DNA from: a virus
Lineage: Duplodnaviria; Caudoviricetes
Length of the DNA: 63,927 nt
Reading direction: 5' to 3' (one strand)
IMG/VR virus record: IMGVR_UViG_3300048587_000084
Location: 1 to 63,927 of that record
Both the position numbers and the translations under genes were made by a program. This document shows positions 3,690-46,714 of the stretch, one piece after another; the first letter of the stretch is position 1, and each line of letters opens with the position of its first letter. Under the pieces are notes generated by a model, which was given only the letters and a program-made list of their open reading frames with translations, searched no databases and had not been told where the DNA came from.

Positions 3690-5791
3690 ATGGCACCCGG
3701 TTGTTGGTTGGCATTCGCGATGACCTGGTCGGCAGTTGGTGCAAACGGCAGCATCTGCGCGATCAGTTGCGCGGTGGTCAGGGCCTTGCCCTGTGTATCG
3801 ACTCGCTGCGACTCCGCATCTGCGAGTAGCTTCTTGGCCTGCGCTTCGGTGTACGTAACATTGGCGCCGCGCTCGCGCTGCACCATGGCCTGTTCCTCAG
3901 CTGCAGCCTGTTCCTTCTGCTGTCGCTTGGCCTGCTGCTCGGGATCGTTCTCGGATCCTGGGTCAGCGTGTCCGTTCAACTCACGGATGCGCTTGACGAT
4001 CACGTCCTTGCCCGGCAGGTCGGTCAGGTCAATGGCCAGATCCAGCAGCTGCAGGCCGATCTGCGGATCCAGCTGACCGATCGTCTCCATCAGCTGCTCG
4101 GCCATCGCGAGGCGCATCGTTTCGCGGTAGTCCTGCGCGTCGACCACGAAATCAGCCTGCTGCGCCGTGATGTCGTTGTGGTAGGTCCACTCACCGGTGG
4201 TTTCATCGAACACCGGCGTATTGATCTCCATCCAGTCGATGGAATGCTGGTTCTCTGTGATCCGGAACTGCATCGGCCCGGTGCAATACTGCTCGGCCAG
4301 GCTTAGTACCTTCTGCCCGCTGATTTTGAACGCGAGCCTGTAGTTGTCGAACAGCGCCGCGGTGGTCAGCGCGCCTTCGCTCTGCTTGGCCTGAATCGCC
4401 CGGCCGCTCTGGGCATTGGTGTCGCGCCCCAGCTGCTCGCGGTTGACGCCGGTGCCGTCGTGAATGTGCGCGGATGCCACTTCGGCGAGGTTCACCTGCC
4501 CTGCGGCCAGTGCCTCACCTCGAAGGATCTCGAAGCGCTTGCTGCCGGCGCCGTTCTTGGCGCTGTTGAGCTTGATGATGCCGTCCGGTCGCGCGGCGTT
4601 GTCCGCCACGTCGTCCCAGTCGTTGACCGCATCCTCGTCGCCAATGACCTGGTTGGCCGCCAGGTGAAACTGCGCCTTGCTCATGCGCTTGTTGAAATCG
4701 CTCTGCGCATCGCGCACGCCACGAATCACGCCGTAGGGCATGCCGTCGCGGTCGCGCCTGAACCCCCAGTATGGCGTGAGGCTGAACCGGTCATGCCGCA
4801 TCGGCATCTTGTCTGACCGCAGCACCCCGTTCGGAACCCACAGCGCGTAGTGGATTTGCTGCCGGATCGTGTCTGACAGGCTGATCGCCCCATCCTGGTA
4901 CAGCTTCACCAGATCCGGGTTGCTCGGATCAAACCACTGGCCGTGATTCCCACCGTCTCGCGCCGTGATGCGCTTGGCCGCCACCGGCTTGCGGAACTGC
5001 GTCTCGATGATCGTGACGCGCATACGCAGGCCGTAGGGCGCGATCCCTGCCCAGTTGCGCGATACCCTTGTGCGGCCGAACTCGTCCGCCCGCAGCCACA
5101 GCTGCGGCACGTCCTCGTCCGACATTTCATCGTCGATGTCGAAGCCGAGCCGGCCCTCGATGTTCGCTGCCGACTGAATCAGCGCCTCGTGCTCCGGGAA
5201 CATCGCCACCGCATATTCCACGTCAAGCGTGCGGCGCCGATGGATGTAGCGCGCGTCCTTGAGCTGCAGGTGCCGTGAGTGCGGGTCCAGCCACACATTG
5301 CGCCATGACTCGTGCTCGCACAGCACCGGCGGGTCGTTCGGGTCTGTCGTGACCGTCTCATCGGTCCAGCCGATGCCGACCTTGACCTGATCCTCGAATG
5401 CGCGTGAGCGCTCCCAGCTGAACCCGTTGACGTCGTCCAGATACTTCATGAAGGCCTGTTTGGCCTTCGCCGGCTCCGTGTCCTGCGGTCCACGCGGGCG
5501 GATGTTCCAATCCAGCCGGCTGCGTCGCTCCGTTCCCAGCAACCAATCGGTGGCGATCTTGACCTTGTTGAACACCAGCGGCGCCTGGAACCGCGCGTGC
5601 ATTTCCGCGATTTCCTCGGCGGTGTACTGCTCGTGGTCGTAGAACGCGGCGTCGGTCGCCTGCTCTGCGCGGTTCTGGCTGTGCCGATCGCGTGCGTCAT
5701 ACCACCAGTCGCTCAGCTGGCGCAGCAGCGCACTGTCATCCTTGCGCGGCGCTTGCGCGGCCGCGGTCGGCGTCGCCGGCTCCATGATCAT
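3686..5791 (-). CDS. portal protein (P22/933W-like)
   Basis: 701 aa. FYDHEQY, PLVFNKVK, GIGW, PYGVIRGVRDAQSDFNKRMSK, SGRAIQAKQ motifs. Confidence 0.9.
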   Translation of the reverse strand: MIMEPATPTAAAQAPRKDDSALLRQLSDWWYDARDRHSQNRAEQATDAAFYDHEQYTAEEIAEMHARFQAPLVFNKVKIATDWLLGTERRSRLDWNIRPRGPQDTEPAKAKQAFMKYLDDVNGFSWERSRAFEDQVKVGIGWTDETVTTDPNDPPVLCEHESWRNVWLDPHSRHLQLKDARYIHRRRTLDVEYAVAMFPEHEALIQSAANIEGRLGFDIDDEMSDEDVPQLWLRADEFGRTRVSRNWAGIAPYGLRMRVTIIETQFRKPVAAKRITARDGGNHGQWFDPSNPDLVKLYQDGAISLSDTIRQQIHYALWVPNGVLRSDKMPMRHDRFSLTPYWGFRRDRDGMPYGVIRGVRDAQSDFNKRMSKAQFHLAANQVIGDEDAVNDWDDVADNAARPDGIIKLNSAKNGAGSKRFEILRGEALAAGQVNLAEVASAHIHDGTGVNREQLGRDTNAQSGRAIQAKQSEGALTTAALFDNYRLAFKISGQKVLSLAEQYCTGPMQFRITENQHSIDWMEINTPVFDETTGEWTYHNDITAQQADFVVDAQDYRETMRLAMAEQLMETIGQLDPQIGLQLLDLAIDLTDLPGKDVIVKRIRELNGHADPGSENDPEQQAKRQQKEQAAAEEQAMVQRERGANVTYTEAQAKKLLADAESQRVDTQGKALTTAQLIAQMLPFAPTADQVIANANQQPGAI

Positions 5792-31297: not shown

Positions 31298-34200
31298 CTA
31301 CTGGGCCATACCGAGCTGACTTTCCAGCCTTGCCTTGATCCGCGGATCAACTACCACACCGTTCTCCGCCTGCGCGCTGAACCGTGCACGCTGCTGGAAG
31401 CTCTTGCGAATGCTGTCGCTGGTGATGGCCAGCTCTGGGTACTTGCGGCTGAACGCCATCATCTTGACGCGCACGTCTTCCTGCGCGTCGGTATCGCCCA
31501 GGCGCCAGGCCATGGCAAAGGCGTCCATCAGGCGGGTGCGGCGGGCCTTGATGTAGTCGGCGTAGCCCTTCACGTCGCCTCGGATGTCGTAGGCGTTGGC
31601 CACTGCGGCCGGCGCCATGCCCATAAGCTGGGCAATGGTCGGGATCACGCCCAGGTCATCCACCACCGGATCGCCGCGCATGTTGTTCACGCCCTCATCC
31701 ATGTAGCGCACGGCCTTCATCGCGTCCTTGATGGCCTTGGGCAGCATGGTTTCGACGCCGCGCCACACCTGACCTTCCTCCATGAGCTGCATGCCGCGCA
31801 GCGCACTGACGAACATGCCGCCCGCCACAGGGCCCGCTGCCTGCTCCAGCCAGTAGTGAGCCAGCGCCTGCCCTTCCATCTCGCGATCTGGCGAGCGGAA
31901 CCACAGTTCGCCCAAGCCAACGCGTGAGGCGATGCCCATGCCGGTGGCGGCCTGCACCGGCCCGCGCATGACGTACTCGGCGCCCTTCTCGCCCAGCATC
32001 TCGCGCCAGAATGCGCGCAGCTCGGTTTCAGCGTCCCACGGCTCGTCATCGTCGCCGAAAGCTGCTGCCAGCGCGTTCATGATGCCCATGACCATGCCCA
32101 TCATCGGCAAGCCCATGGTGCCGGAGAACAGCGCCGTCATCCCCAGCGTGCCGGTCAGCGCGCGCATGTTTTCCTTGCGGGTTGCGGGATCAGCGTCCTT
32201 GAGCGACTTCCACGCCATGCGGCCCAGCAGCCAGGTCATGCCCATGCTGTACTGCTTGAACTGCAGCAGCACCTTGGCCACGGCGCCGCGCATGTAGCGG
32301 CTGCGGTTGGACGCGCTGTAGTCGAAGTGGGTCTGGTTGACCGCCTTGTCGCCCAGCTCGATCGCCATGTCGTGGCTCTTGCCGGAGGCGCGCGCCATCC
32401 GGTAGGTGGCCAGCGACGTGGACTCACGGTTGACCACCTCGGCGCGGTGGAATAGGAACGAGGCCCAGCTCAGCGCCTTGTGCAGCATCGGGTTGTAGGT
32501 GTGCGTATCGGTTTCGCTCAAGCCTGCCAGGTTGTGCACCTGCGACTTGTCGAACGTGCCGCGGCGCTTGAACTCCGCGTAGGCGCGCTGCTCATCGTCG
32601 GTGAGCGCGCCCGGTCCCTCGATCTTGTCGGTATTGCCCAGGGTACGTGCCGACTGCTTGAACCCGCGCCACAGCTCGCGCGCGGCGACGTCGAAGCCAT
32701 AGCGCGCGCCGAGCACGGGGAACGACACCATGGCCGTCTGCAGCAGGTTGACCAGCGCGGCAGCGGGTGACACGGCCAGATACCAGAGGAAGCCTAGCGT
32801 GGTGAGCTTCTGCGCGGCGCCGGAGTCCTGCGGGTTCATCACCCACTCGTGCCGGTCGCGCAGCTCGCCCACCAGCTGCCCCGCCTTGTTGGCGTCCGGG
32901 CTGTCCACCTCGGCCATGCTGTCGGCCAGCGCCTGCGCCTTCAGTACCTGCGCATCCAGCTTGTGCGTGTATTTCAGGCGGGCAATCTGGTAGCTGCTGT
33001 GAAACACGTGGCTGGCCAGCGCGCGCACCACGTCCTCGCTGAATCCGGGCGTGCCCTTGCGATGGATGAAGTTCTTGCGCATGGACATTTCCGGCAGCGT
33101 CGTCAGGTACAGCTGATAGACGTCGTTGCGGATCTTGTCTGGCGCGTGGCTCTCCTGCAGCACTTTGTCCACCTCGGCGATGAACGATGCGCTGGCGCCT
33201 TCGAGCTGCCGCGTCATCTTCGACTTCACGCCGCTGCTGATTCGGGTGTAGCCGGCCGCGCTCAGGCGCTTTTTCACCATCCGCTGTTCTTCGGTGGACT
33301 CCTGCATGTGGAACTCGCGCGTGCCATCTGGCGCGGTCGCGGCCACAAAGTATTCGCCCCAGCGCGACAGAGGCACGTAGAACGGTACCCGGTTGCTTTC
33401 AAAGTTCAGCTTGAGCTGCGCGATCATCCGCGCCTTCTGGCGGTCGTCGGTGATGGCCGCTTTCAGGCTTTCCATCAGCGCGTCCTGATACTTGTCGCTC
33501 TGCGAGGCGTAGGCGTCGCGCAGCTCCACCCACAGCTTTTTGCCCTCGGGCGACAGCTTAGACCAGATCGGCTTCATGGCTGCGTGCGAGTCAGCGCGCT
33601 TTTTCTCCTGCGCCAGCATCTTCTTCGCCTGCTTTTTGCGCGCGATGAAGTGCTGCGCCGAGCCCGGCGACATTTTGGCCAGGTTGTCCATGAGCTTGGT
33701 GAACGCCTTGACGTTCGCCGGGGTCACGGGCTGGTTGCTCTGCTCGGTGGCGTCCAGCATCAGCAGCGGCTGGTGATCGGCCGCCGGGTCGACGCCGGCC
33801 AAGGTCGCATCCATCAGCATGCGGTACATCTTCAGCGCCTCGGCCTTGTTGGCGCCCTGGTACTTCATGGCGCCTTCGACAATGTCGATGCTCACCTGCT
33901 GCAGCTCATTGCGCAGCGTCTGCATGTGCTGCACGGTGTCCGCGTATTCGGCCACCGGCGGCAGCAAGTCCTCACCAAGCTCGCCAAGGTGGCGTAGCTG
34001 CAGCGCGCCGAGTGCAGCCGGGCGCCAGTCGGCGGCCTTGTCCTTGAGGCGCTGCAGCAGCGTCGTGTCCTTCGGGCTGATCGCTTCCTGGAGGCGGTCG
34101 ACGATGGTGGGCTCGGAGCCTTTGGCGAATAGTGCCCCTTGACGTGGCGCAACATCAGCAACCGAGTCATGCTCGATCGCGATCTTAGTTGGCGACTCCA

Positions 34201-37200
34201 TCACGGCACCCCACGCGCGACGCATGTCCTCTATCGCCACGGCGTTCGTTGCGTTATCAGCAAGGTAATTGGTCATCCCGCGAAGCATTGCGCGCGCTCC
34301 ACTGAAGCGCTGTCGACCAAGGAATACATCGTTGATCTGAGGCGATAGTGGCCGAGGCCCCTTCATGTTCGGCGTCATCCCAAGCGAGCGCTCTCGATGA
34401 AACGTCTCGATTGTTGCCCTACCAACAGAGTCGACGCGTGCAATCAGGTAGCGGCCATCCATGCGATTCACCCGGATGTCAGCAGTTGGCTTTTCGCCAG
34501 TCAGGTCAAGGTCGACGTACTCGACCTCCCACCCAGCATCACGCATAACCCGATTGAGCTGGATCGCGCGCTTGTTAACCGGCGCGGCGTCCTTCCCCTT
34601 CGCGAACAGCGCCTGCCCCCCAGATGCGCCAAGCCCCTCGCTGGGAGGGGCTTGGCGGGTGTCTTGCTGGTCGGGTGATGGCGGAGGCTCATCCATCAGA
34701 TCCAGCGCCATTCGTCCGCGCTTGCGAACGTCCGCGCCTGGGAACTGGCTATGAATCGCCTCCGCAGACTCCTCTTCGTTCGCGCGGTCAAGGGCTGCGT
34801 AGGCGATCTCCATGTCGTCGAAACCAGCGGCAGTTAGACGCTGGTACTCATTGGCCGAAACATCCACGATTGGCAGCTTGTGCCCGCGCTCGGCAGCGAC
34901 TGAGGCGCGGTTGTGACCATCAAGAATCTCGCGCGTCCCATCGTCCTGCAAGATCGTGACCGCAGGGAAATACTCGTCGCCTGGGAAGTCTTCACGTACC
35001 GCATCAAGTCGGTTCTGTTCCGACTCACGAAACACCAGTTCGGCAGGATCGACAAGCGTGCGCTTCATGCCCCCAACGCTACCACCATCCTTTCCAAAGC
35101 TATACCGCTCCATCGCCTCCCGCTGCGTCGTCGGCTCCGGCCGCCCAAGGATCTTCTCAGCGCTCGATCGATACGCACGCCCCTCCAGCTTCTGCCCAGC
35201 CTCCCACAGCAGTTGCCGCAGCTCGCCATGGCTCAGCTCCAACTGCGGGAACAGCTTTCGCAGCCACGCGCGCACGGCGTTCATGGCGCGCTGCAGGATG
35301 CTTGTCTGGATGTTGCGCTCGGCGAACACGGCGATCGCCTCGCTGGCGAAAGTCGCATCGTTCAGCGGCCGGAACGTGCCATCGGCGTTGCGCTCGTAGC
35401 GCCTTTCCACCTCGGCGAACACCTCGGGCCACTTGCCGCGGTCCTTCAGCGACACAATGCGGTCGGTCAGCTCGCGGAACAGCTTGGGCCCCAGCATCTG
35501 CTCCATCGACAGATGCCCCACCATCTCGTGCGCGAACAGCTTGGCCGCATGCTTCGGGCTGCGGATGCGAGCGGCCACGAAGTACACGGTCTTGCGGTCG
35601 CCGGTGATGGCGGCCTGCACCGTGTCGTCATAGTCGTCCTGCGCAACCACCTCGGGCGCCACGCTGGCCAGCTCGGCGCCGTTGGCGACCACCACCACGC
35701 GGATGCCCTGCTCCTGCATCGCATCTGCAGCGCGCTTGAATTGAGCCTGCAGTGCAGCCTTGCTCAGTCCGCGCGCGCCGGCATCGCCAGCGCCGCGGGC
35801 GTACAGGATGCTTTCTAGCTCTGACCCGCGTAAGCCAGCGCGGCCGAGCTGAAGCAGGCGCGTAACCACCCCTCGCCATGCAGGCGTGCCTGCTCTGCGT
35901 TCCAGGGATCGCGACACCACTCCACGACGAAGCGTTGATACTCCCGCTCGCGCCGCTCTGCCTGCTGGGGACTCGGCGAGTGTTTGGAAATCAGCGCGCG
36001 TAAACGGCTTTCCGCTTGCACCAACGAATTGTCCGCTGTCCCAGTCATAGTCGATCGCCTGCAGGTCTGGCACGTTGTCGACGACATTGTCTGCCGAAGC
36101 GCGGATCAGCTCAAGCAGGTTGTTCTGGTCGTCGCCCTCGATCCAGTCGAGCCCCTGGTCCTCGTGCGGCAGCATGTGTTTCGTGGTGCCGGTCTTGAGC
36201 GCGCTTGACAGCATGTGCTCGCCGCGGCGCTGCATCGCGGCCTCGCTGACGTCGGCCGGGTCCGGAATGAAGGTGATGCCGTTGTTGTGCGCATAGGCCA
36301 GCGCGATCGAGTACAACGCGCTGCCACGGTGCACGCCTTCCTGTAGCTGGCTGGCGTCCATCGCCAGTTCGCCATCAAGGATGGTCATGGTCACGGCCTT
36401 AGGCTTGCCAAGCGGGTTCACCTTGACGCCGGTGAGCGCGCGCACGTGCGTGTTGAGCCCGGCGGATCTGCCGGCGGTGCCGCTCTGCGCAAGCAGGCGG
36501 TCGGCGATCTCTTGCCCGAACTCCGTCACCACGTCCGCACGGCCGTTCACCGGCATGCTGAACGCCTCTTTGCCGTCTTTGGTGTAGCCGAACAGCGTTC
36601 CGTGACCAATGTCCGTTGGCGCAATGCCCACGCCACCGCTGGTGCGCACGTATTCCACCCGAACCAGCGTGGTGCCCATGTCGCGGGCGACGTTGCCGGC
36701 ATCATCCTTCTGCGGCTGCACCGTGATCGTGGCGCCGTCGTCCACCTCCACCACCTCAGCATCCGGAAGGATCGCCTTGGTGATGTCCTCGAAGCTCTTG
36801 GCATACGTGCGCGGGCGCTGGAACGTGCCGGGGATCTCCGCCAGCGCCTGCCAGGCGCGCGCCGTGGCGGGGGTGAACTTGGGGGCGTCGGCGGACTTGG
36901 AGAAGCTGGCGCGGTTTCCGCCATCTAGCTTAGCGATCTCCGCGTCGAGCTTGTCCTTCGGGAAGGCTCTCTGTTCAAGCGCGGTTTTGATTGTGCCGCG
37001 ATTCTCGACGATGGCCTTGTTTGCCGCCTCGATGGCTGCCTTGCGCGTCTTGCCGAGCCCAACACGCAGCCCGGTTGTTGCCTCCATGATCTCGAACTGC
37101 CCGCTATCTCTGCCAACGCCTGGGGCGATGTAGAACTGGCCATCTGGCATCTCAGACAACTCGATGCTCTTGGCGTTCGGCTCGTGCACGATATCGCCGC

Positions 37201-40200
37201 CAAAGTTGCGGAAGTACGGCCGACTACTCACTACACTACGCGCCGGTGTCGACTCGATACCTGCGGCAGGCGGCGCCGGTAACGCTGGCGCAGCATTGGA
37301 AACATTCGTCTGGACGACAGTCTCCGGGGTCGGCCCCGTGCCGTCCTTCGGCGTCTCGCCTGGCTTAGCGTGCACGATCGGCGCCTTGAACTCGCGCTGC
37401 TCGTACAGCGGCATGCCTTGCGCGTCCTTGGCGTCAAGGTACGGGATTACGACCTCCCCGCCCTTCGCGTCTTGCGCGATGACAAACCACCCGGCGCCGT
37501 TCCAACGATGGCCGGTCACGACGAATGCCGTTCCGTTCCACCGCACCTTAGTATCAATCGCGGCGCCGTTGCGCAGCCACGCCGGCGGCGGCACCGGGTT
37601 GAGCTGGATGTCCTTTTCAAGATTGAGCAACTGCTGCTCGGCGCGCTTGAGTTGATCGGCGCGCTGGAACTTCTGCCCCGCCACTTCGTCAAGTCGCTGG
37701 ATTGTTTCGAGAGCCGGTTGAATCCGCGCGCGCAGCTTGTCGACTGTGCCCGTGTACGCCCGCAGTGACGACTCCAGGCTTGCCACCGATGCGGCGCCCG
37801 TCGCGACTTCCTCTCCGGCAACCACTGCGACGAATACCGGGGCCTCATAGAAGCGAGGCCACGCCACATGCAGCGGCAGGCCGCCGTATGAGCCGATGCG
37901 CATTGGATCGGCGCCGGTCCTCATGTTGGCGCCGATGAACTTGCCGATCGCCTCGTTCGCCTCCTTGCGCTCGGAGATCTCTACGCCGTCGACTGTGATT
38001 CTGAACTTGTCGCCAGCATGGTCAGCAACCGCCTTGGCGGCCATTTCTTGGGCGCCGGACTTCTCGATGCGATCGATCTCGGCCCGCTGACGCGCCAAGC
38101 CGTCGCGAGCGTTGCGCGCGGTGCTCTTGGCATCCGCCACGCCTTGCGTGTGCAGGCGCTCGCGCTTTTGCAACTGCTCAACTTGCGCGACCAGCTTTTG
38201 ACGAATCAGAACGCGCGGATCACCGGCAGCTTCGGCAAACGTGCTGATGATGTCGCTTTCCTCATCGGATGCAGCGTCGCCCTCAATTACGCGAGTGTCC
38301 CCGTCGGCCTTCAGGAAGTCCGTAATGAACTTCTGTTTGATGGCCAGCACCTGCCAGCGCCGCCCGTCGATGCGGTCGGTGATGTACCGGTACTCCATGA
38401 CCGTGTTCCACTGGTTGCCCTGGCGGTGCCCGCGGCCGTTGCGTTGCTCCAAGTCGCCAGGCATCCATGGCGCGTCCAGGTGGTGCATGGCGCGCAAGTT
38501 GCGTTGCATGTTGACGCCAACGCCAAGGGACTGCGTGGAGCCGATGACGATGCGCACCGTGCCGGCGTTCATGGCGTCGGCGATCTCCTTTCGCCTGTCC
38601 TTGCTGGTAGAGCCGTCGACGATCTCGATCTCTGAACGCGGGACGCCCTGCTGCACCAGGCGTTCAACCATATCTCTGATGGGCGAGAACACCTTGACCT
38701 GCCTGCGCAGCGTTACCCCGTCCGCGTCCTTGATCGTCCCGCCTGCGGCGTCACGCAGTGCGCGGTTGGCTGTAGTTCCAAGCCCGGTGTTGGTGAACAC
38801 CACTTGCGTAGCGCGCGTGTCGCTGCGGTAGATCTCCAGCAGGTTGCGGATGGCGCGAGATACCTTGCTGTCCGGGTGATCTGGGACGTTGCCCTCCTTG
38901 CCTGCCAGCGCCTCATCGTTTTCCATGCGCGCGTCGAAGCTCGCGCGCGCCGCCAACTGCTCGTAGACGATCGGGACAACCGGCAGTCCGGCCGACATGG
39001 CGTCACGACGTGCCTTGCCGCCCATGTTCCGCCACTCATTGGCAAGCGACTGCACGCCTTCGAAGATCCGCATCTGATCTGGCGTTGGGTCCGCCGTCTC
39101 GTTGACCACCTTCTTGTATGGCCTGTCCTTGGCGCCCTCGGTGCGTCCGTTCAGTAGCTCGGCGCGCTCCCGCTCGGTCAGGCTTTGATCCGCCAGCAGC
39201 TTGCCGGATGCGGTTCGACGCGGCTGCATTTCCGGCATGTCGTCGGAAAACACCACGTCCATGTATTGCCCGACCATCTTGCGCAGCTCGGGCACGTTGA
39301 TGAACCCGCGCAGCCTGTTGACCGCCTCATAGTCGCCGGCTGCGGTGAGTTCCACGTCCTGAATTTCTTTGGCAAACGATCCAAACCACCCGTCCCACTG
39401 ATCCACACCCACCGCGGCCATTTCGTCGGCCATGATGTAGCGCATTTGGTGGAAGATCTCGGTCAGGGTGTTGGTGATCGGTGTCCCGGTGAACAGGTGG
39501 ACGTTGCCGCCATTGTTCTGCTCGCGGACGTAGCGCGTCAGGAAACTGAGCTGGATCGAGCCCAGGGACGATTGGGTCTGCAGCCCTTTCATCTTCATGC
39601 GTGTGGCGATCGGCGGCTTCTTGAACTCGTGCGCCTCGTCGACCAGCACCATGTCGATGCCCAAATCCTCGAACGGCACAGCGCCTTCGCGCGATGACTG
39701 CTGCGCCTGCTTCTTGATCGTCTCGATGATGCGTGCGCGGGCCTTGACCAGTTCCTTGGCGGTTGGCGATCGCAGCTTCTTCAGTTCGTCCGGGTCATCC
39801 AGCATTGCGTCGGTGAAGTTCTGGCCATCGTCGCTCGCAGCCAGGCGGGCCTCCGCCTCAAGCGCTTCGATTTCCTCTCGGGCCATGGCCATGAGCGTTT
39901 CCTCACGGAAGGACAGGCGCTCAATCAGCGAGTGCGGCAGCACAATCAGATCCCAGTCGTCATTGGCGATCTGCCGCAAGCGCACGTCGATGGCCTTGGG
40001 CGACAGGTTGTCGATGTAAAGCACCTTCGCCGCCGGGTACATCATTTGGATTTCAGACGCGACGGACTTACTGTTGGCATTGTGTGCCAGCAGAACAGGC
40101 TTCTTGGCGATGCCGTACCTGCGCGACTCGACTGCAATGCCGCCCATGGTGAAGGTCTTGCCGGTGCCGACCTCATGGGCGTTCAGGGATCGGCGCATGA

Positions 40201-43200
40201 CCAGCGCGCGCCAGATGGCGTTGACCTGGTGCTGGCGCAGGTCGAAGGGGCCGCGACCGACGCTCAGCGCCATGCCGTCGAAGTTGAGGAACGAACCATC
40301 GAACGACGGCGAGGCGTAAGCGTTGCGCACCTCGTTGTATTCGCGCTCGATCTCGATCCGGCGCTCGGCGTCCGACCATAGCCAGTCGCCGAACTTCTCC
40401 CGCATATCGGCAATCTTGGCGTTGGTTTCGTCCGTTGCGGTCTGGTCGACAAACTCGCGCCCGTCCCGGTCCCTCTCCTTGATCACAACCGTCTGGTTGC
40501 TGATGGCCGCGTTGACCAGCTTTCCGAATCGGTAGTACCTGGTCCCGAAGCCGGTCTGTGCCTCCGTGGAACGCTGCAGGCTAGGATCGACCGTCACCTT
40601 CCAGCGCCCCATGGTGTAATTGGCGGAGATCCCGTCAGTGTCGCCGCGGTTGAGCATGTGCGCGACAAACTGCTCGTAGGCGCGCGTCGGAACCCAGGTG
40701 GCGCCCATCTGCACTTCGATGTTGAAGTACGGAATGTCGGCTGGCTGCACTTTCTCCAGCGCCTCCACGTTGCGCTGCATGGCGTCGTTGCCATCGGCCA
40801 GCGCCACCTTGGCCTGACGCAGCTTCTCGCGCACGTTGCCGGACAGGTACATATCGGACGGCACGATGTCGCCGCCCGGCGTCTCGAACACGGCGCCGCT
40901 GTCCACAAGCTCGGCGCGCACCATGGCTTCCGGCTTCTGGGCGATCTTCGCGATCTCATCCAGGGATGGGTTCACATTGCCATTGCGCGCCAACACAAAG
41001 GCATCGCGGATCGATGGGTTCGTGATCCGTTTCGCTGACCGGATGGTGCTTTGCGACAGGATTGCAGCCGGGCGGTAGGTGTTGCCGTCCTTTGTTTCCA
41101 GCGCCGCAAGGGCGTAATAGAACGGGTCGTCGATCCTCTCCAGGTAGCCCAGGCCGAAGCTCTCACTCATCGGGCCATATGCCTTGACGAAAGCCTCGTA
41201 CCGCTCCCGTAGTTGCGTGCGGATCGGATCTGGCGCTGCCCCCGACGTTCCGCGCTCGGCTTCGATCAACTGCCCGTAGGACTTGCGCATGTCGATCAAC
41301 GCATTGAGCTGAGCCTCGCGCGCGGCGGTGTCCTTCTGGCTCTTGACCTGATACTTGAGCACCTCATGAGCTGGCGCCAGGTGTTCCCCGCGGACGATGA
41401 ACAGCCCGGCATCGGTGCGCGTGAGCGCCCCCTCTCGGTCGCTGGTGTGATTGGCGATGTAGCTGACCGCATCCTGGCGCGTCGCGGACAGGTAGGCGCC
41501 TTCCGGGACCATCGACACGATGCGGTCGAGCTGCGCCTGCATGTCATCCGGGCGGTGCACGATCATTCCGGGGCGGAACGTGGTCGTCCCGTGGCCATAG
41601 TCGATGGTCCCCACCACGCTTTGCGGGTTGTTCTGGTAGTAGGCGTTGACGCGGACCTTTTCGCCAGCTGGCGTGTCCATCTCGACCGTATCGACCCACG
41701 CCTCGCCGTCCACGTTCGACGCGGGCTCGGGCCGCTTGCGCAACACGATGATGTCAGTGACAACCTTCGTGCCTGCGTAGTTCTCGAAGGCCCCGGACGG
41801 CAGGCGGAAAGATGCCAACAGCTCGGCCTTCTTCGCCAGCTCACGGCGCACCACGGTGCCCTTCTTGTCCATGGACCCAGCGGACGTAATGCCGATCACA
41901 ATGCCGCCCGGCCGCACTTGGTCGAGCGTCTTCAGGAAGAAGTAATCGTGCAGCATTGGGTTCAGGCGGTTGTACCGCCGATCGGCGACCGGGGTGTTCT
42001 CGAACGGCCAGTTGCCGATCACCAGGTCATAGAAGTCGTCTGGCGTCTTCGAGTCCTGGTAGCCCATCACCTTGACCGTGGCGTCAGGGTAGAGCATCTG
42101 AGCCATGCCGCCAGTCACCGGGTCAAGCTCGATGCCGGCGAGCTTGCTGCGCTCTTTCAGGTCCAGCGGCATCATGCCAAAGAAATTGCCAATGCCCATT
42201 CCGGGCTCCAGCACGCGCCCTCCTTTGAACCCCATGCGCCGCACCATTTCCCACATAGCCATGACGGTTGGCGGGTCGGTGTAGTGCGCGTTGGTGATCG
42301 AGCGCTGCAGGCCTTCCCAGTCCGACCTGCCAAGGTGATCGCGCAGCCATTGGTCGCGCTGCTCCCATCCCTGCTTTGGCTGCGGGTATGCCCAGCTGCC
42401 CTGAAACAGATCCTGGCCAAACGAGCCCCAGCCGGTGTATCCGGCCAAGACCTCCTGTTCCTCGCGGGTTGGCCGGCGGCCTTCGTCGCGCAGCGCGACG
42501 AACAACTCGATAGCGGCCTTGTTCTTGTTGAAGCGCGCGACCTGCCCACCGCCGACGATTTCAAGCGGGTTGGCAATGTGGAAGTTGCCGGGGCCTGGGT
42601 TTGCCGGACTGACAGTCTCCGGCTTGGTTACGCCTGGGCGATCTGTTCCTCTTGTGCTTCCGGCTCCAGCATCAGGTGATTTCTTTCTGCCTGCTCCCTT
42701 GCGTCCGGTGCCGGCATTCCCGCTTCCCTGAGACTCTTGCTCTCCTGCCACATCCTCTGTTGGAGAACGAACGCCAGCGGCACTGCCAGATTGTTGCGCT
42801 CCAGGCTTCGCCACATCTTCGGACTGTGCAGCCGCCACGTCTCCAGTATCCGGCGGTGCATTTCCAGATTGTGCATCACGCTCTCGTCGTTCTTGAGCGC
42901 CTGATACTCCTTCCTGATCGCCGCCGCGAACGCTGGGCTCAGTTGGCTTTGGTGCTGCATCGGTGCTGTCCTCCGTGACGTCATCTTGCGCCGGTGCTGG
43001 CGTGCTGTCCACCACCGCATTCTCAACGCTGGCCGCGCTGTCCATACCATCGAAGCCAGCGGCGCGCGGGTCGTACTTCACTCCCATGTACCAGCTCTTG
43101 AGGTACGGCTTTACCGCGTCGCCCAGGTCGTCGACCATCGCCTTGGCGTAGGCCGCGAACGTGCGCGCGCCGCGCTCGATGTGGTACATGCCAAGCGTGA

Positions 43201-46200
43201 TACCGTCGAGCATCATTTCCGGGTCGATGCCGCTGTTCAGCCGGTTGAACTTGGCTTTCAGGCGCGCACGCGCGGCCTCGGCGTCGGCGTCGGTAACGAT
43301 GGTGTTGGCGGATGGTGCGGGCTTGGCCTTTGGTTGCTCGGTCGGCGCTGTGTCTTTGGTGGCTGCAGCTGATTCCTCTGCAGTCATGAACTCCCGCTGC
43401 AGAACACCGCGGTCGATCTGCATGCCTTGGCGTGTCGGCCGCATGCTGACCGTCTCGAAGATGCGAACTCCGCCCTGCGCATACCAACGCACACCGCGCT
43501 CGTCCTCGCGGATCATTACGCCGTCAGCGCGGCGTCCGACAATGCCTTTCTCTGGCTGTGCCGGCGCTGGCGCAGCTTCCACCACCTCTATTTGACGGCT
43601 ACTTGATTGCTTGGCCTGCTCCCGCTCAATCGCCGCACGCACGTCCGCGGCCTGCACCGTCCTCGGCTTGAGGTTGTACGTCACCCCGTCCAGGTTCTTC
43701 GCTTCGGACTTGATCTCCCCAACGATCTCCTGCGCGCGCTTTTTCGTGACCTTGAGCGTATCGCGCACGATCGCAATGGCGTCGCTGCGCAGAATGATGT
43801 TGCGCTTGCTCAGCAGCGCTTCCGGCTTGGCTGCTTCGGCGGCTGGCCCGGCCTCGGCTGCTTGCTCGGTGCGTGGGGCTTCTTGCTTGGCATTGGTCGG
43901 CTCCTGTGCGGCCGCGGTCGCCGCAGTCGCGCCATTGGCCTGCGCCGCCGCCCGCCGCTTCACTTCCGCGATCGTGATCGTGGTGCGCTCCGGCGTGGTG
44001 CGAACTGCCTCCCACACCGCTTCCTCGGCTTTTGTCAGGGTATCCACGCTGATGTTGCCGAGCACCGGTCGATCGTCGCCTTTGGCCTTCACGGCGGCTG
44101 GCGTTGCTACCTGCGCAACCTGTAAGCCTTCCTTACCAGTTGCCTCCGACGTGTTCGCTTCTGGCGCTTTTGCTGACACGTCCGGCGCAGCCGTCAAGGA
44201 TTCCTTGACAGCTCCCACTTTTGGCACCCGCACCACAAACCCGCCATCCACCTCGATCACCTTGCCGCCCGGCGTCCTCTTGGCCGCAGCATCGGCCGCG
44301 GTGCGAATCGTCCACGGCGAGCCACTTGGAGGCGTAATATCGCCTTCCAACTGGTCCGTGCTGGTATCGTATGACTGAGTTTCCGCCGCCCCCTGCGTTC
44401 CGACCGCCACCGATGCGGATGTTTGCGAACTACCAGCTTGGAGTGGCGTGCTACCAGCTTGCGCAGCTGCAGTTTCAGGTTGATCAACTGAAGTGGATTG
44501 AACAGCTGCGGCTGATGCAGTCGGAACGGCTTGTGCAGTGGTCGCTGCCGCCAGATCCTGACTGGCACTCGCCTTCGCCGCTGTAGCCTTCCGCTTCTGC
44601 GCCAGCGCCTGCCGCATCTGATCCACGCGCAGCGGCGTAACGCCGAGCTTCTTGGCCATCGCCATCATGCTTGCGCCGTCGATGGGCTTGCCAGCGTCGA
44701 TGTTGGCCTGCACTACAGCCTGAATATCCGCGTCGGTGGTCTTGAGCGCTTCGGCCTGCGCGTCTTTCTCGGCTTGCCGGCGGTCCTTGTCCGCCTGGCG
44801 CGCGGCTTTGTCGGCTTCCTTGGCCTGCTTCTCGGCGACCTTCTGCTGCTGCACCTGCGCGCGCTCGGCCTCGGCCTGCTGCGCGGCCTGAGCCTGCAGC
44901 TGCTGATCCTGCTCGGTCTGCACGCGCTGCTGCTCGGCGATCGCTGCGGCACCGGTGTCGAACGCGGCCGCAGCGGCCGCCGACGTCGGGCCTGCTGCCG
45001 GATCTGGCCGCGGCGCACGCGTGAGCGCGCTTTCGCGCTTCGCTTCCATCTTCGCCTGGAACGCTGCCGGGTCCGGCGGCGTGGATAGGCGCGTGATCGG
45101 CGTCGGGCCTGCCGGTGCCTGCGCAGTCCCCTGCGCTTCCGCAGCGGCGGCCACTGCGGAGGCCTCCGGCCCACCACGCACGGCCGCTTCGAGCGCCTTC
45201 TGCTGCTCGGCCGCCTGCGCCTTCTTGTCGAGCTTGGCGATTTCCTTCGGGTCGACCACGGTGCCAGTTGCCGGATCGACCAGCAGCTTGCGGCCCTTGC
45301 CCTTCTCCCATCCGCTCACGTAGCCCAGCCGTTCCAGCTCCGCGAACAACTGTTGCTCGGTCTGCCCGTCGATGTTCAGCTTCTGCGCGAGCTTGCCCTT
45401 GCCCGGTACCTTGCCCTTTGTGGTCGCCAGCACCGCCATGGCATCGGCCACCAGGTCGCGCTCTGGCGATGCGGCCGGAACCTGCGCCGCGGTGTCCGCA
45501 ATCAACGGCGGGGCAGCCGGGGCAGTCGTTACTCCCGGCGCCGCACCAGTCGCCACCGCAGTCTCCGCGGCCGCGCCAACCGGTCCGGACGGGCGCGTGA
45601 TCGGCGCTGGCACCGGCGTAATCGCTTGGCTGGCCAGTTCTTCTGGCCGCGGCTCTGGCGCCGTGCTGATATTTGCCGGTGTCGGTGGCGCCTTCGGCTG
45701 CACTTCCGGTGGCCGCGCGAGCGCACCCGCTGGCGCGCCGAGCGCGAAGCCACCAACAGCGCCAAGGCCTGCTTGCTCGCCCACACCCTCGAACGCGGCT
45801 GCATTCGGGTTGACGGTCTGCTCGGCAAGATTGCCGAACAAGCGTCCGCCACCTTCCTCGATGGCTTCCTGAGTTGCCTCGCCAAATCCGCCCTTCGCTG
45901 CTCCGATTACGCGCCCCATGCCCGGTAGCGCATTGCCCGCACCAGCGACCGCACGTTCCAGTGCCCTGGCGCCCGGAAACACCTGACTGGCCAGCGACAC
46001 GCCGGCCGCTCCGGGAAATGCCGTGCGCGCGGCGCCAAGTGCCAAGGCCTCACGAACCGCGGCCGGATCTTCGCCAGCGTCCACGCGCTGCAGGTATTCC
46101 GGGTTGCTCTGCCACACCTCCGGCTTCGCGTCAGACACGCGCTCGTAGGTGCCGGCAGATGCGTCGGCGCCGGCCTGTGCTGCGCCCGTACCAACGCCAG

Positions 46201-46714
46201 CAGCCACGCCAACCAGTGGACTCGCCAGCGCGCCAATACGGCCAGCAGCGAACGCCGGCACCATGCTCGCCGCCGTCGACGCAGCCGTGTCCACAAACAG
46301 CGCAGGGTCTGTGATCGTTTCCGCGATGCCGACGCCGAACTTTGCCAGCTCGCCATCCGCCGAGTTGATCGCATCCTGACGCTGCTGCCGCTTGAGCTTG
46401 AGTTGCGGGCTAATGCCTGCATCCCAGTATTCGCGCGTGCTCTGACCAGTGCGCGTGATCGGGTTGTTCATCTCGCCGGTGGCGAGCCCCGCAAGCGTCC
46501 CGATGTTCTCCACGGCCGAGCCCACACCGCTGGCCAGCGCGCGGCCGGTGTCGGCGATCGCGGTGCCCATGGAACGCGTGATTGGCGGCGGCTTGGCAAT
46601 GCCGGACAGGATGTCCGCATACCGACTTGCCTTCGGCTTTCGTTGCGCATCAGGTGCGCTCTGGACAGCAGGACTCTGCGGCTTTACGCCGAGAATGTCG
46701 TCATAACGACCCAT
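31298..46714 (-). CDS. 5138-aa DarB-like large polyvalent virion protein (N6 methyltransferase, SNF2 helicase, GNAT-like, zincin, ParB-like, PLxRFG)
   Basis: VLEPGMGIGNF and VIGNWPF (about 42000-42220); AHEVGTGKT, VDEAHEFK, LEQRNGRGHRQGN (about 38400-40200); RGSALYSIA (about 36300); AHEMVGH (about 35520); ILDGHNR (about 34920); VPLSRWG (about 33365). Confidence 0.9.
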   Translation of the reverse strand: MGRYDDILGVKPQSPAVQSAPDAQRKPKASRYADILSGIAKPPPITRSMGTAIADTGRALASGVGSAVENIGTLAGLATGEMNNPITRTGQSTREYWDAGISPQLKLKRQQRQDAINSADGELAKFGVGIAETITDPALFVDTAASTAASMVPAFAAGRIGALASPLVGVAAGVGTGAAQAGADASAGTYERVSDAKPEVWQSNPEYLQRVDAGEDPAAVREALALGAARTAFPGAAGVSLASQVFPGARALERAVAGAGNALPGMGRVIGAAKGGFGEATQEAIEEGGGRLFGNLAEQTVNPNAAAFEGVGEQAGLGAVGGFALGAPAGALARPPEVQPKAPPTPANISTAPEPRPEELASQAITPVPAPITRPSGPVGAAAETAVATGAAPGVTTAPAAPPLIADTAAQVPAASPERDLVADAMAVLATTKGKVPGKGKLAQKLNIDGQTEQQLFAELERLGYVSGWEKGKGRKLLVDPATGTVVDPKEIAKLDKKAQAAEQQKALEAAVRGGPEASAVAAAAEAQGTAQAPAGPTPITRLSTPPDPAAFQAKMEAKRESALTRAPRPDPAAGPTSAAAAAAFDTGAAAIAEQQRVQTEQDQQLQAQAAQQAEAERAQVQQQKVAEKQAKEADKAARQADKDRRQAEKDAQAEALKTTDADIQAVVQANIDAGKPIDGASMMAMAKKLGVTPLRVDQMRQALAQKRKATAAKASASQDLAAATTAQAVPTASAAAVQSTSVDQPETAAAQAGSTPLQAGSSQTSASVAVGTQGAAETQSYDTSTDQLEGDITPPSGSPWTIRTAADAAAKRTPGGKVIEVDGGFVVRVPKVGAVKESLTAAPDVSAKAPEANTSEATGKEGLQVAQVATPAAVKAKGDDRPVLGNISVDTLTKAEEAVWEAVRTTPERTTITIAEVKRRAAAQANGATAATAAAQEPTNAKQEAPRTEQAAEAGPAAEAAKPEALLSKRNIILRSDAIAIVRDTLKVTKKRAQEIVGEIKSEAKNLDGVTYNLKPRTVQAADVRAAIEREQAKQSSSRQIEVVEAAPAPAQPEKGIVGRRADGVMIREDERGVRWYAQGGVRIFETVSMRPTRQGMQIDRGVLQREFMTAEESAAATKDTAPTEQPKAKPAPSANTIVTDADAEAARARLKAKFNRLNSGIDPEMMLDGITLGMYHIERGARTFAAYAKAMVDDLGDAVKPYLKSWYMGVKYDPRAAGFDGMDSAASVENAVVDSTPAPAQDDVTEDSTDAAPKPTEPSVRGGDQEGVSGAQERRERDAQSGNAPPDTGDVAAAQSEDVAKPGAQQSGSAAGVRSPTEDVAGEQESQGSGNAGTGRKGAGRKKSPDAGAGSTRGTDRPGVTKPETVSPANPGPGNFHIANPLEIVGGGQVARFNKNKAAIELFVALRDEGRRPTREEQEVLAGYTGWGSFGQDLFQGSWAYPQPKQGWEQRDQWLRDHLGRSDWEGLQRSITNAHYTDPPTVMAMWEMVRRMGFKGGRVLEPGMGIGNFFGMMPLDLKERSKLAGIELDPVTGGMAQMLYPDATVKVMGYQDSKTPDDFYDLVIGNWPFENTPVADRRYNRLNPMLHDYFFLKTLDQVRPGGIVIGITSAGSMDKKGTVVRRELAKKAELLASFRLPSGAFENYAGTKVVTDIIVLRKRPEPASNVDGEAWVDTVEMDTPAGEKVRVNAYYQNNPQSVVGTIDYGHGTTTFRPGMIVHRPDDMQAQLDRIVSMVPEGAYLSATRQDAVSYIANHTSDREGALTRTDAGLFIVRGEHLAPAHEVLKYQVKSQKDTAAREAQLNALIDMRKSYGQLIEAERGTSGAAPDPIRTQLRERYEAFVKAYGPMSESFGLGYLERIDDPFYYALAALETKDGNTYRPAAILSQSTIRSAKRITNPSIRDAFVLARNGNVNPSLDEIAKIAQKPEAMVRAELVDSGAVFETPGGDIVPSDMYLSGNVREKLRQAKVALADGNDAMQRNVEALEKVQPADIPYFNIEVQMGATWVPTRAYEQFVAHMLNRGDTDGISANYTMGRWKVTVDPSLQRSTEAQTGFGTRYYRFGKLVNAAISNQTVVIKERDRDGREFVDQTATDETNAKIADMREKFGDWLWSDAERRIEIEREYNEVRNAYASPSFDGSFLNFDGMALSVGRGPFDLRQHQVNAIWRALVMRRSLNAHEVGTGKTFTMGGIAVESRRYGIAKKPVLLAHNANSKSVASEIQMMYPAAKVLYIDNLSPKAIDVRLRQIANDDWDLIVLPHSLIERLSFREETLMAMAREEIEALEAEARLAASDDGQNFTDAMLDDPDELKKLRSPTAKELVKARARIIETIKKQAQQSSREGAVPFEDLGIDMVLVDEAHEFKKPPIATRMKMKGLQTQSSLGSIQLSFLTRYVREQNNGGNVHLFTGTPITNTLTEIFHQMRYIMADEMAAVGVDQWDGWFGSFAKEIQDVELTAAGDYEAVNRLRGFINVPELRKMVGQYMDVVFSDDMPEMQPRRTASGKLLADQSLTERERAELLNGRTEGAKDRPYKKVVNETADPTPDQMRIFEGVQSLANEWRNMGGKARRDAMSAGLPVVPIVYEQLAARASFDARMENDEALAGKEGNVPDHPDSKVSRAIRNLLEIYRSDTRATQVVFTNTGLGTTANRALRDAAGGTIKDADGVTLRRQVKVFSPIRDMVERLVQQGVPRSEIEIVDGSTSKDRRKEIADAMNAGTVRIVIGSTQSLGVGVNMQRNLRAMHHLDAPWMPGDLEQRNGRGHRQGNQWNTVMEYRYITDRIDGRRWQVLAIKQKFITDFLKADGDTRVIEGDAASDEESDIISTFAEAAGDPRVLIRQKLVAQVEQLQKRERLHTQGVADAKSTARNARDGLARQRAEIDRIEKSGAQEMAAKAVADHAGDKFRITVDGVEISERKEANEAIGKFIGANMRTGADPMRIGSYGGLPLHVAWPRFYEAPVFVAVVAGEEVATGAASVASLESSLRAYTGTVDKLRARIQPALETIQRLDEVAGQKFQRADQLKRAEQQLLNLEKDIQLNPVPPPAWLRNGAAIDTKVRWNGTAFVVTGHRWNGAGWFVIAQDAKGGEVVIPYLDAKDAQGMPLYEQREFKAPIVHAKPGETPKDGTGPTPETVVQTNVSNAAPALPAPPAAGIESTPARSVVSSRPYFRNFGGDIVHEPNAKSIELSEMPDGQFYIAPGVGRDSGQFEIMEATTGLRVGLGKTRKAAIEAANKAIVENRGTIKTALEQRAFPKDKLDAEIAKLDGGNRASFSKSADAPKFTPATARAWQALAEIPGTFQRPRTYAKSFEDITKAILPDAEVVEVDDGATITVQPQKDDAGNVARDMGTTLVRVEYVRTSGGVGIAPTDIGHGTLFGYTKDGKEAFSMPVNGRADVVTEFGQEIADRLLAQSGTAGRSAGLNTHVRALTGVKVNPLGKPKAVTMTILDGELAMDASQLQEGVHRGSALYSIALAYAHNNGITFIPDPADVSEAAMQRRGEHMLSSALKTGTTKHMLPHEDQGLDWIEGDDQNNLLELIRASADNVVDNVPDLQAIDYDWDSGQFVGASGKPFTRADFQTLAESPAGRAARAGVSTLRRGVVSRSLERRAGTPAWRGVVTRLLQLGRAGLRGSELESILYARGAGDAGARGLSKAALQAQFKRAADAMQEQGIRVVVVANGAELASVAPEVVAQDDYDDTVQAAITGDRKTVYFVAARIRSPKHAAKLFAHEMVGHLSMEQMLGPKLFRELTDRIVSLKDRGKWPEVFAEVERRYERNADGTFRPLNDATFASEAIAVFAERNIQTSILQRAMNAVRAWLRKLFPQLELSHGELRQLLWEAGQKLEGRAYRSSAEKILGRPEPTTQREAMERYSFGKDGGSVGGMKRTLVDPAELVFRESEQNRLDAVREDFPGDEYFPAVTILQDDGTREILDGHNRASVAAERGHKLPIVDVSANEYQRLTAAGFDDMEIAYAALDRANEEESAEAIHSQFPGADVRKRGRMALDLMDEPPPSPDQQDTRQAPPSEGLGASGGQALFAKGKDAAPVNKRAIQLNRVMRDAGWEVEYVDLDLTGEKPTADIRVNRMDGRYLIARVDSVGRATIETFHRERSLGMTPNMKGPRPLSPQINDVFLGRQRFSGARAMLRGMTNYLADNATNAVAIEDMRRAWGAVMESPTKIAIEHDSVADVAPRQGALFAKGSEPTIVDRLQEAISPKDTTLLQRLKDKAADWRPAALGALQLRHLGELGEDLLPPVAEYADTVQHMQTLRNELQQVSIDIVEGAMKYQGANKAEALKMYRMLMDATLAGVDPAADHQPLLMLDATEQSNQPVTPANVKAFTKLMDNLAKMSPGSAQHFIARKKQAKKMLAQEKKRADSHAAMKPIWSKLSPEGKKLWVELRDAYASQSDKYQDALMESLKAAITDDRQKARMIAQLKLNFESNRVPFYVPLSRWGEYFVAATAPDGTREFHMQESTEEQRMVKKRLSAAGYTRISSGVKSKMTRQLEGASASFIAEVDKVLQESHAPDKIRNDVYQLYLTTLPEMSMRKNFIHRKGTPGFSEDVVRALASHVFHSSYQIARLKYTHKLDAQVLKAQALADSMAEVDSPDANKAGQLVGELRDRHEWVMNPQDSGAAQKLTTLGFLWYLAVSPAAALVNLLQTAMVSFPVLGARYGFDVAARELWRGFKQSARTLGNTDKIEGPGALTDDEQRAYAEFKRRGTFDKSQVHNLAGLSETDTHTYNPMLHKALSWASFLFHRAEVVNRESTSLATYRMARASGKSHDMAIELGDKAVNQTHFDYSASNRSRYMRGAVAKVLLQFKQYSMGMTWLLGRMAWKSLKDADPATRKENMRALTGTLGMTALFSGTMGLPMMGMVMGIMNALAAAFGDDDEPWDAETELRAFWREMLGEKGAEYVMRGPVQAATGMGIASRVGLGELWFRSPDREMEGQALAHYWLEQAAGPVAGGMFVSALRGMQLMEEGQVWRGVETMLPKAIKDAMKAVRYMDEGVNNMRGDPVVDDLGVIPTIAQLMGMAPAAVANAYDIRGDVKGYADYIKARRTRLMDAFAMAWRLGDTDAQEDVRVKMMAFSRKYPELAITSDSIRKSFQQRARFSAQAENGVVVDPRIKARLESQLGMAQ
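35815..36048 (-). CDS. putative nested gene (+1 frame, 77 aa) inside the giant gene
   Basis: MTGTADNSLVQAESRLRALISKH...; GC3-rich codons, while the host frame switches to rare AGA/CGA/GGA/GTA codons. Confidence 0.5.
   Translation of the reverse strand: MTGTADNSLVQAESRLRALISKHSPSPQQAERREREYQRFVVEWCRDPWNAEQARLHGEGWLRACFSSAALAYAGQS
42628..42960 (-). CDS. putative nested gene (+1 frame, 110 aa, TnpV-like pattern) inside the giant gene
   Basis: GGAGG-N9-ATG; RRILETWRLHSPKMWRSLE...AREQAERNHLMLEPE; the host frame here is a low-complexity linker. Confidence 0.72.
   Translation of the reverse strand: MQHQSQLSPAFAAAIRKEYQALKNDESVMHNLEMHRRILETWRLHSPKMWRSLERNNLAVPLAFVLQQRMWQESKSLREAGMPAPDAREQAERNHLMLEPEAQEEQIAQA

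Follow-up and report, generated by a model that had tools for sequence, protein, structure and literature searches.

The phage genome considered here (the window: all 63,927 bp of IMG/VR record IMGVR_UViG_3300048587_000084, a complete genome with direct terminal repeats) very probably carries a functional 110-codon gene nested in the +1 frame of a giant gene that encodes a DarB-like virion protein. Translation most likely starts at the nested gene's own GGAGG-N9-ATG, on a late mRNA shared with the host gene, and would yield a 12.9-kDa, six-helix protein. The host gene measures 15.4 kb, and its polyvalent, DarB-like status is borne out by Pfam matches to Helicase_C, LPD37 and LPD39 and by homology to DarB-like proteins, its relatives in Bcep22-like and allied podophages being annotated as DarB-like antirestriction proteins. 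Within this gene, the overlap falls in a low-complexity linker between a helical domain, for which we coined the label “LDG”, and a methylase–helicase module. What lies beyond chance in the nested open reading frame (ORF) is its conservation, its substitution pattern and its start signals, not its length.

First, the base composition of the overlap follows the small frame. On the minus strand, the elements read GGAGG (42974–42970), a 9-nt spacer (42969–42961), ATG (42960–42958) and, at the far end, TAA (42630–42628), in agreement with an earlier, sequence-only reading of this DNA, which had placed a GGAGG-N9-ATG at 42960 at the head of a 110-aa, +1-frame ORF running to 42628. That reading had further contrasted the ORF with the Arg/Pro/Ser-rich shadow ORFs elsewhere and described the giant frame over the same bases as low in complexity. 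Both descriptions hold: the combined R+P+S+G+A share of the nested ORF (0.40) is the lowest among the 41 stretches of 80 codons or more that are open in alternative frames on the same strand within the giant ORF, and the giant-frame translation across it is a G/A/S/R/D/E/P-rich low-complexity stretch. The GC content at the first, second and third codon positions (GC1/2/3) of the small frame is 0.649/0.378/0.757 over the 110 codons and 0.62/0.48/0.75 over the whole stop-to-stop stretch, a normal coding profile; the giant ORF overall has 0.668/0.471/0.789, and the giant frame within the overlap only has 0.766/0.649/0.378. GC3 tracks the small frame, and giant-frame GC3 collapses in the overlap. 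The length of the ORF is by itself within chance, as about 20% of the related loci is taken up by +1 stretches open for 102 codons or more, and other ORFs of 129–154 aa lie nearby on the same strand. A longer, 140-aa form beginning at an ATG at 43050 is not conserved: a relative (L003, 91% identical) has no ATG upstream of the aligned one. On the opposite strand, a 108-aa antisense ORF (42652–42978, plus) mirrors the nested gene and has an open counterpart in Pseudomonas phage vB_PaeM_USP_18 (L002 2267–2734, minus); it is probably no more than the mirror frame that commonly stays open opposite a GC-rich coding frame.

Second, the small protein belongs to a widespread family and the nested frame persists across it. 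A HMMER scan of 1.84 billion representative proteins returned 126 clusters at E ≤ 1e-3, 51 of them at E ≤ 1e-10, nearly all of 100–130 aa and matched end to end, and a word-indexed search added 33 further matches, all named “hypothetical protein” and none with a Pfam domain. An alignment of 40 of the protein matches (A1) contains five invariant residues (W42, A63, M70, A87, A91) and 14 more columns that are at least 90% conserved; a search for longer homologues produced one 202-aa protein only. By tblastn, only phage USP_18 and its companion vB_PaeM_USP_25 matched in the GenBank phage set (57.5% identity, E 7e-23), the homologue in USP_18 being an open +1 ORF within a single annotated giant coding sequence (CDS), and no match was found in plasmids. 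A scan of IMG/VR yielded 28 loci at 36–91% identity. In all 29 viral loci (these 28 and USP_18), the homologue is open for 102–187 codons from stop to stop and lies wholly inside a giant ORF at the same +1 offset, with the giant frame open over it and the third frame closed. The same nested arrangement recurs in 7 of 14 genome loci and in 25 of 35 metagenome loci. The sequence-only reading had named persistence of the +1 ORF in homologues as a check, and the ORF is open in every viral locus; its expectation that annotation pipelines miss such genes also proved right, as the deposited annotations of relatives do not list the nested gene.

Third, purifying selection acts on the small frame, while the giant-frame linker sequence drifts freely and is only kept open. 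We compared the frames over 88 ungapped codons in 29 distinct sequences (L019, identical to L018, was dropped). In pairwise comparison, amino acid identity averages 47.6% for the small frame, against 32.5% for the giant frame and 34.7% for the unused one. The mean pairwise nucleotide difference by small-frame codon position is 0.428/0.352/0.478, the least variable position being the second of the small frame, that is, the third of the giant frame. As a control, we took a flank of the methylase module (260 codons starting 20 codons past the nested stop, giving 212 ungapped columns at 70.9% identity in 29 loci), in which the giant frame shows the normal pattern of 0.225/0.166/0.514. An overlap-aware count over 10 phylogenetically independent pairs of 72–99% nucleotide identity sorts changes by their effect on the small and then the giant frame: those synonymous in the small and non-synonymous in the giant frame (SN) number 188 over 594 sites (rate 0.316), the converse class (NS) 78 over 838 (0.093), and those non-synonymous in both (NN) 178 over 1474 (0.121). 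The resulting dNN/dSN of 0.38 for the small frame and dNN/dNS of 1.30 for the giant frame answer the per-frame dN/dS comparison that had been proposed, with constraint in the small frame and none in the giant-frame linker. Close relatives show the same bias: between the window and L003 there are 31 SN, 1 NS and 12 NN changes, and among seven variants listed within the ORF in contigs from wastewater runs, six are silent in the small frame and all seven change the giant frame. Two features of the method weigh on the other side, namely that the codon alignment was derived from the small-frame protein alignment and could favor the small frame, for which reason only ungapped blocks and close pairs were counted, and that the class rates are uncorrected for transition bias or multiple hits.

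These data bear directly on two ways in which the ORF might not be a gene. It could be an untranslated relic of an old gene boundary, held open by shared ancestry and by constraint on the giant frame, and the frequency of long +1 open stretches in GC-rich DNA lends this idea some footing. However, the constraint lies in the small frame and not in the giant one, the frame is open in every viral locus down to 36% identity, the core residues are kept across 40 diverse members, and the predicted fold is confident, all of which render the relic very improbable. The linker might instead harbor a conserved RNA or DNA element, such as a structure or a binding site, rather than a second protein. Nothing specific speaks for such an element, the one weak terminator-like hairpin (42789–42774) being within chance (1 against a shuffle mean of 0.8), whereas the three-base periodicity with small-frame position 3 most variable, the concentration of change at small-frame synonymous sites, and the occurrence of homologous proteins in unrelated settings, either on their own or as in-frame fusions, make it scarcely credible.

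Fourth, the start signals favor separate initiation of the nested gene. All of the 30 loci have an ATG that aligns within about 10 codons; a 12-codon window in that frame would contain one by chance with a probability of 0.23. A Shine–Dalgarno (SD)-like 4-mer occupies positions −16 to −4 in 21 of 29 loci, compared with 347 of 2266 (15.3%) other same-frame ATGs (binomial p = 9e-12, uncorrected for relatedness); persistence of the SD in homologues was another check that the sequence-only reading had proposed. In 10 loci, a +1-frame stop stands 1–9 codons ahead of the ATG, so near that a shift out of the giant frame could scarcely be accommodated. L063, closely related to the nested L014 and L015, carries the domain as an in-frame fusion; it has ATA in place of the ATG, and the loss of a single base 13 nt farther downstream unites the two frames. 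Several points pull the other way. Kinship among the loci is ignored in the SD statistic; the SD-like 4-mer is absent at the chosen ATG in 8 of 29 loci; one-base indels toggle the domain between nested and fused states among close relatives; and the existence of natural fusion products makes expression by frameshifting conceivable. As for transcription, a metatranscriptome contig of a relative spans 42705–42951 with 18 differences, which is no proof of transcription. A promoter scan over 42300–43500 found none.

If expression did proceed by frameshifting, the small domain would not be made separately; a +1 (or −2) shift after LDG would instead generate a product comprising the N-terminal part, LDG and the small domain, alongside the full-length giant protein. 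Such a product would mimic the fused architecture seen in nature, given that at least four lineages have proteins in which LDG and the small domain are joined in frame, and the window's +1 frame is indeed open for 39 codons before the ATG. In Sinorhizobium phage PBC5, moreover, orf33 terminates in the domain, read in frame, and the methylase frame runs over the same stretch. Yet neither the universal ATG nor the SD enrichment would be needed by a shift, the +1 stops in 10 loci stand in its way, no obvious slippery run is visible by eye in the 90 nt upstream in the window (no systematic motif search was made), and in Atu_ph08, a close relative of PBC5, the giant ORF is unbroken and the domain lies nested in it, so that PBC5 may reflect a one-base difference or an error. 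We consider frameshifting unlikely, and initiation at the nested gene's own ATG remains the preferred reading.

The nested protein (12.9 kDa, pI 6.5; median pI of the mildly acidic family, 5.25) is predicted by AlphaFold2, supplied with A1, to form six helices with a mean predicted local distance difference test score (pLDDT) of 83.8 and a predicted template modeling score (pTM) of 0.73. No convincing structural match emerged: the best Foldseek hit had E 2.6 against the PDB and, against BFVD, E 0.27 with probability 0.99 and TMq 0.57 (Q8W6J4_2, possibly PBC5 orf33), and the best Z of 6.0 in a wide VIA-align structure search is within noise for helical models. In Pfam and PHROGs, the 110- and 140-aa forms matched nothing except phrog_37110 at E 0.15.

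The sequence-only reading had pointed to a resemblance to TnpV-like small proteins, which stands as a lead to a distant relationship and falls as membership. The window protein has no Pfam match at E ≤ 10, and Pfam TnpV (PF14198, gathering score 27 bits) is matched by none of the 40 family members at E ≤ 1. Nevertheless, a second nested family, represented in Atu_ph08, PBC5, PEp14 and Itty13, is homologous to the window family by HMMER (E 3.6e-7 to 1.6e-5, Z = 1000) and by hhalign (91.4%, E 9e-7), and the nested ORFs of these four phages and of Bcep22 have TnpV as their top Pfam family, at E 2.9e-4 to 0.071 and 13.5–21.2 bits, all below the cut-off; the Bcep22 match is weak (E 0.045). The ESM Atlas adds a weak TnpV lead, a single cluster, ranked eighth (score 0.82), of whose members 11% carry TnpV. 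The Atu_ph08-type family against the Bcep22-type gives 30% by hhalign, and the window family gives no hhalign signal (0.1–0.4%) with the nested ORFs of Bcep22/UAM5, Skulduggery/ZX1 or 8P. A TnpV match in a Psychrobacter genome was rejected as it sits in an unrelated 473-aa ORF. Through intermediate sequences, then, the window family appears distantly TnpV-like, which is a fair lead.

How did a folded protein come to be encoded beneath a disordered linker? The small gene is probably the older reading and predates the low-complexity linker of the giant protein, because its codon profile is genome-like, its distribution is wider and includes non-nested forms, and the host frame is disordered. In the most likely scenario, a gene that ended in LDG and the small domain would have been joined to the methylase–helicase gene downstream of it by reading through the small gene in a different frame, with an internal start preserving the small protein. 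The sequence-only reading had proposed that the linker exists to host the gene of a partner, putatively an inhibitor, chaperone or packaging adaptor; GC3, the substitution classes and the non-nested forms suggest the reverse order, with the linker laid over an older gene.

The non-nested forms are instructive in this regard. The 14 bacterial-genome loci comprise 7 nested in giant ORFs, presumably prophages, 4 Psychrobacter fusions, 2 free-standing genes and 1 frameshifted hybrid. In the four Psychrobacter loci, the domain forms the C-terminal end of a protein no longer than about 370 aa, read in frame and preceded by LDG, and in-frame LDG fusions are found in L035, L038, L039, L040, P0028, P0050, L063 and L077, the last a 443-codon ORF that reads TnpV-like domain, LDG, LDG, small domain. 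One free-standing gene (L033) follows ffh-rimM-trmD, and the other (L036 1093–1494, from a Pseudomonas metagenome-assembled genome contig) lies beside a Tn3-type transposase, a resolvase and an umuC-like polymerase gene. Nesting in an ORF of 300 codons or more is seen in 25 of the 35 metagenome loci and is absent from the other 10; the locus sets overlap, at least L066 coming from the same contig as L017. As we read it, the small domain is thus able to fold by itself, and it is repeatedly found covalently joined to LDG. In Psychrobacter proteolyticus (L035, 1251–10018), the 371-aa fusion of LDG and small domain sits between an MmeI-type restriction-modification gene and a Zorya-like set, the latter consisting of a 689-aa ORF, a MotB_plug/OmpA protein and an EH_Signature protein; these neighbors place the fusion gene in a defense island.

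The recurrent fusion to LDG and the fixed position before the enzymatic core suggest a partner role. It is conceivable, if doubtful, that the small protein is a non-covalent partner that docks on the LDG domain and is made in step with the giant protein. The distance from the nested gene to the methylase module is constant across nested loci. Other results weaken the case for docking: of 29 nested loci, 19 have LDG 35–1880 nt upstream, whereas a stretch of 700 codons revealed none in the other 10, and an AlphaFold2 model of the natural fusion P0028, confident for both domains, reaches a pTM of only 0.52 and says nothing firm on packing. Complex prediction for the LDG domain and the small protein, run without controls, speaks neither for nor against docking, with scores of 0.20 and 0.01 against a mark of 0.32.

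Nested ORFs at this place extend beyond the window family. Among nine other DarB-like giant genes, eight are continuous and carry a +1 nested ORF of 104–150 codons in the linker after LDG. The remaining one, of PBC5 (L045, about 3200–3574 onward), is split: the TnpV-like domain ends orf33 in frame, the methylase frame is already open across the end of orf33, and an unannotated gap of about 650 nt precedes the annotated start of orf23. PBC5 may differ here from Atu_ph08 by a single base, its sequence may contain an error, or the site may be one of real frameshifting. In Bcep22-like and Gervaisevirus phages, a +1 nested ORF of about 107–135 codons is present in seven of seven (two of which are also among the nine), with GGAGG-N9-ATG in Bcep22, BcepIL02 and DC1. 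Both frames look constrained in the Bcep22/DC1 pair (SN 0.157, NS 0.085, NN 0.014). The nested ORFs of Skulduggery/ZX1 and 8P have no detectable similarity to the window family or to the remaining nested ORFs. Altogether, a nested ORF occurs at the equivalent place in 13 of 14 distinct DarB-like phages, and none is annotated in the deposited records. In Pseudomonas phage Itty13 (L051), two long “hypothetical protein” CDSs are annotated opposite to the giant DarB-like ORF and are probably a mis-annotated GC-rich mirror frame.

The sequence-only reading had envisaged a general design in which polyvalent proteins carry overprinted partner genes, citing a second +1 ORF of the window (35815–36105, minus, 96 codons). 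At the linker position only, this idea finds support, in the 13 phages; the 35815 ORF lends it nothing, as no match to it was found in five of five searched relatives, all of which carry the gene at 42960. The own-frame GC3 of that ORF is 0.73, compared with 0.59 for the giant frame there. A broader proposal, on which we would place no great weight, is that across this podophage supergroup the linker arose by overprinting of an older TnpV-like gene when two virion-protein genes fused, that the nested protein is an LDG-docking subunit packaged or acting with the giant protein, and that indels switch between covalent and non-covalent arrangements.

Features of the window and of related DarB-like phage genes
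Feature	Position	Strand or frame	Basis or remark
Giant host gene, 5138-aa polyvalent DarB-like virion protein	31298..46714	minus	ORF listing, Pfam, annotation of relatives
Nested gene, 110 codons + TAA, +1 frame of giant ORF	42628..42960	minus	12.9-kDa six-helix product (predicted, AlphaFold2); family unnamed
Shine–Dalgarno-like GGAGG	42970..42974	minus	9 nt ahead of ATG 42960
Helical LDG domain, aa 1139–1234 of giant protein	43013..43300	minus	directly upstream of nested gene
Low-complexity linker of giant frame, overlapping nested gene	42585..43012 (boundaries approximate)	minus	giant-frame translation, GC3, substitution classes
Methylase–helicase module of giant protein	38417..42584 (upper boundary approximate)	minus	begins about 15 codons past nested stop
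Bcep22 nested ORF	L046 3287–3610; equivalents in L091, L092, L093, L053, L094, L095	+1 frame	unannotated
Further nested linker ORFs, 104–150 codons	L052 3195–3647 (Skulduggery); L054 3422–3817 (Klebsiella phage ZX1); L047 3822–4136 (8P)	+1 frame	

As for the rest of the giant protein, the LDG region is the best-conserved DNA across 36 phage records, and the LDG domain matched no Pfam family. The Helicase_C match lies at 38417–38704. No Pfam match to a methylase domain was obtained at E ≤ 1e-3, and the methylase part of the module was assigned from the annotations of relatives. Residues 1–2600 (38915–46714, minus) match no Pfam family at E ≤ 1e-3, although relatives' annotations put the DNA methylase there. 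Giant-frame GC3 also falls, to 0.59–0.67, at residues 223–334, 667–889 and 3886–4218, where the alternative frames have no convincing coding profile.

The nested gene adds an unannotated, strongly conserved protein to the antirestriction/polyvalent locus of Pseudomonas, Burkholderia, Ralstonia, Erwinia and Agrobacterium phages, some of which are studied for therapy or biocontrol. It offers an unusually clear example of overprinting in nature, the probable newcomer being the frame of the disordered linker in a fused giant gene and the probable elder that of a folded protein, with fused, free-standing and nested natural forms at hand for comparison. It also places the functionally obscure TnpV-like proteins in a new setting that can be tested. 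Genes of this sort would escape any gene caller that disallows nesting on the same strand. Were the combination of overprinted linker and docked subunit to prove true, it would amount to a general design rule for polyvalent proteins that is invisible to gene callers.

Full-text literature searches, supplements aside, returned no report of a nested gene in DarB-like genes, including in the available portions of PMC9144972 and PMC5512222, and in the portion available of the latter, a paper on polyvalent proteins, the words “overlapping”, “frameshift” and “TnpV” do not occur. The nested gene is real, previously unannotated, and a variant of the known theme of embedded genes. A parallel on that theme is offered by the Rz/Rz1 spanins, where likewise one gene is wholly embedded in another of the same strand, is read in the +1 frame from a start of its own, and both products are late (presumably so for the nested gene); an embedded Rz1 is described in the JC1 report for related Bcep22-like phages (PMC9144972). 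The nested gene differs from Rz/Rz1 in that its host is a 15.4-kb virion-protein gene, in that the nested frame is the constrained and probably older one while the host frame is an unconstrained linker, and in that its product is a predicted soluble helical protein and not a lipoprotein.

TnpV of mobilizable transposons such as Tn4451 resembles the nested protein in size and helical character, and its role, in excision, is only postulated by likeness to lambda Xis (PMC3158075). The nested gene, by contrast, sits in a phage structural gene and not in a serine-recombinase transposon, although its homologue in L036 does adjoin a Tn3-type transposase and a resolvase. The P1 Dar accessory protein Ulx is, like the nested protein, small and encoded at a methylase–helicase antirestriction gene, yet it is the product of a separate gene downstream of darB, and we rejected it as a relative (hhalign of A1 against Ulx, probability 0.08%). 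Ulx is reported to enter virions with DarB (Piya et al. 2017). Finally, the tail assembly chaperones G/GT likewise draw two products from one stretch of DNA in two frames, with stoichiometry fixed by translation; G and GT, however, share an N-terminus and need a slippery site, whereas the conserved ATG and SD of the nested gene, with stops just upstream, point to separate initiation.

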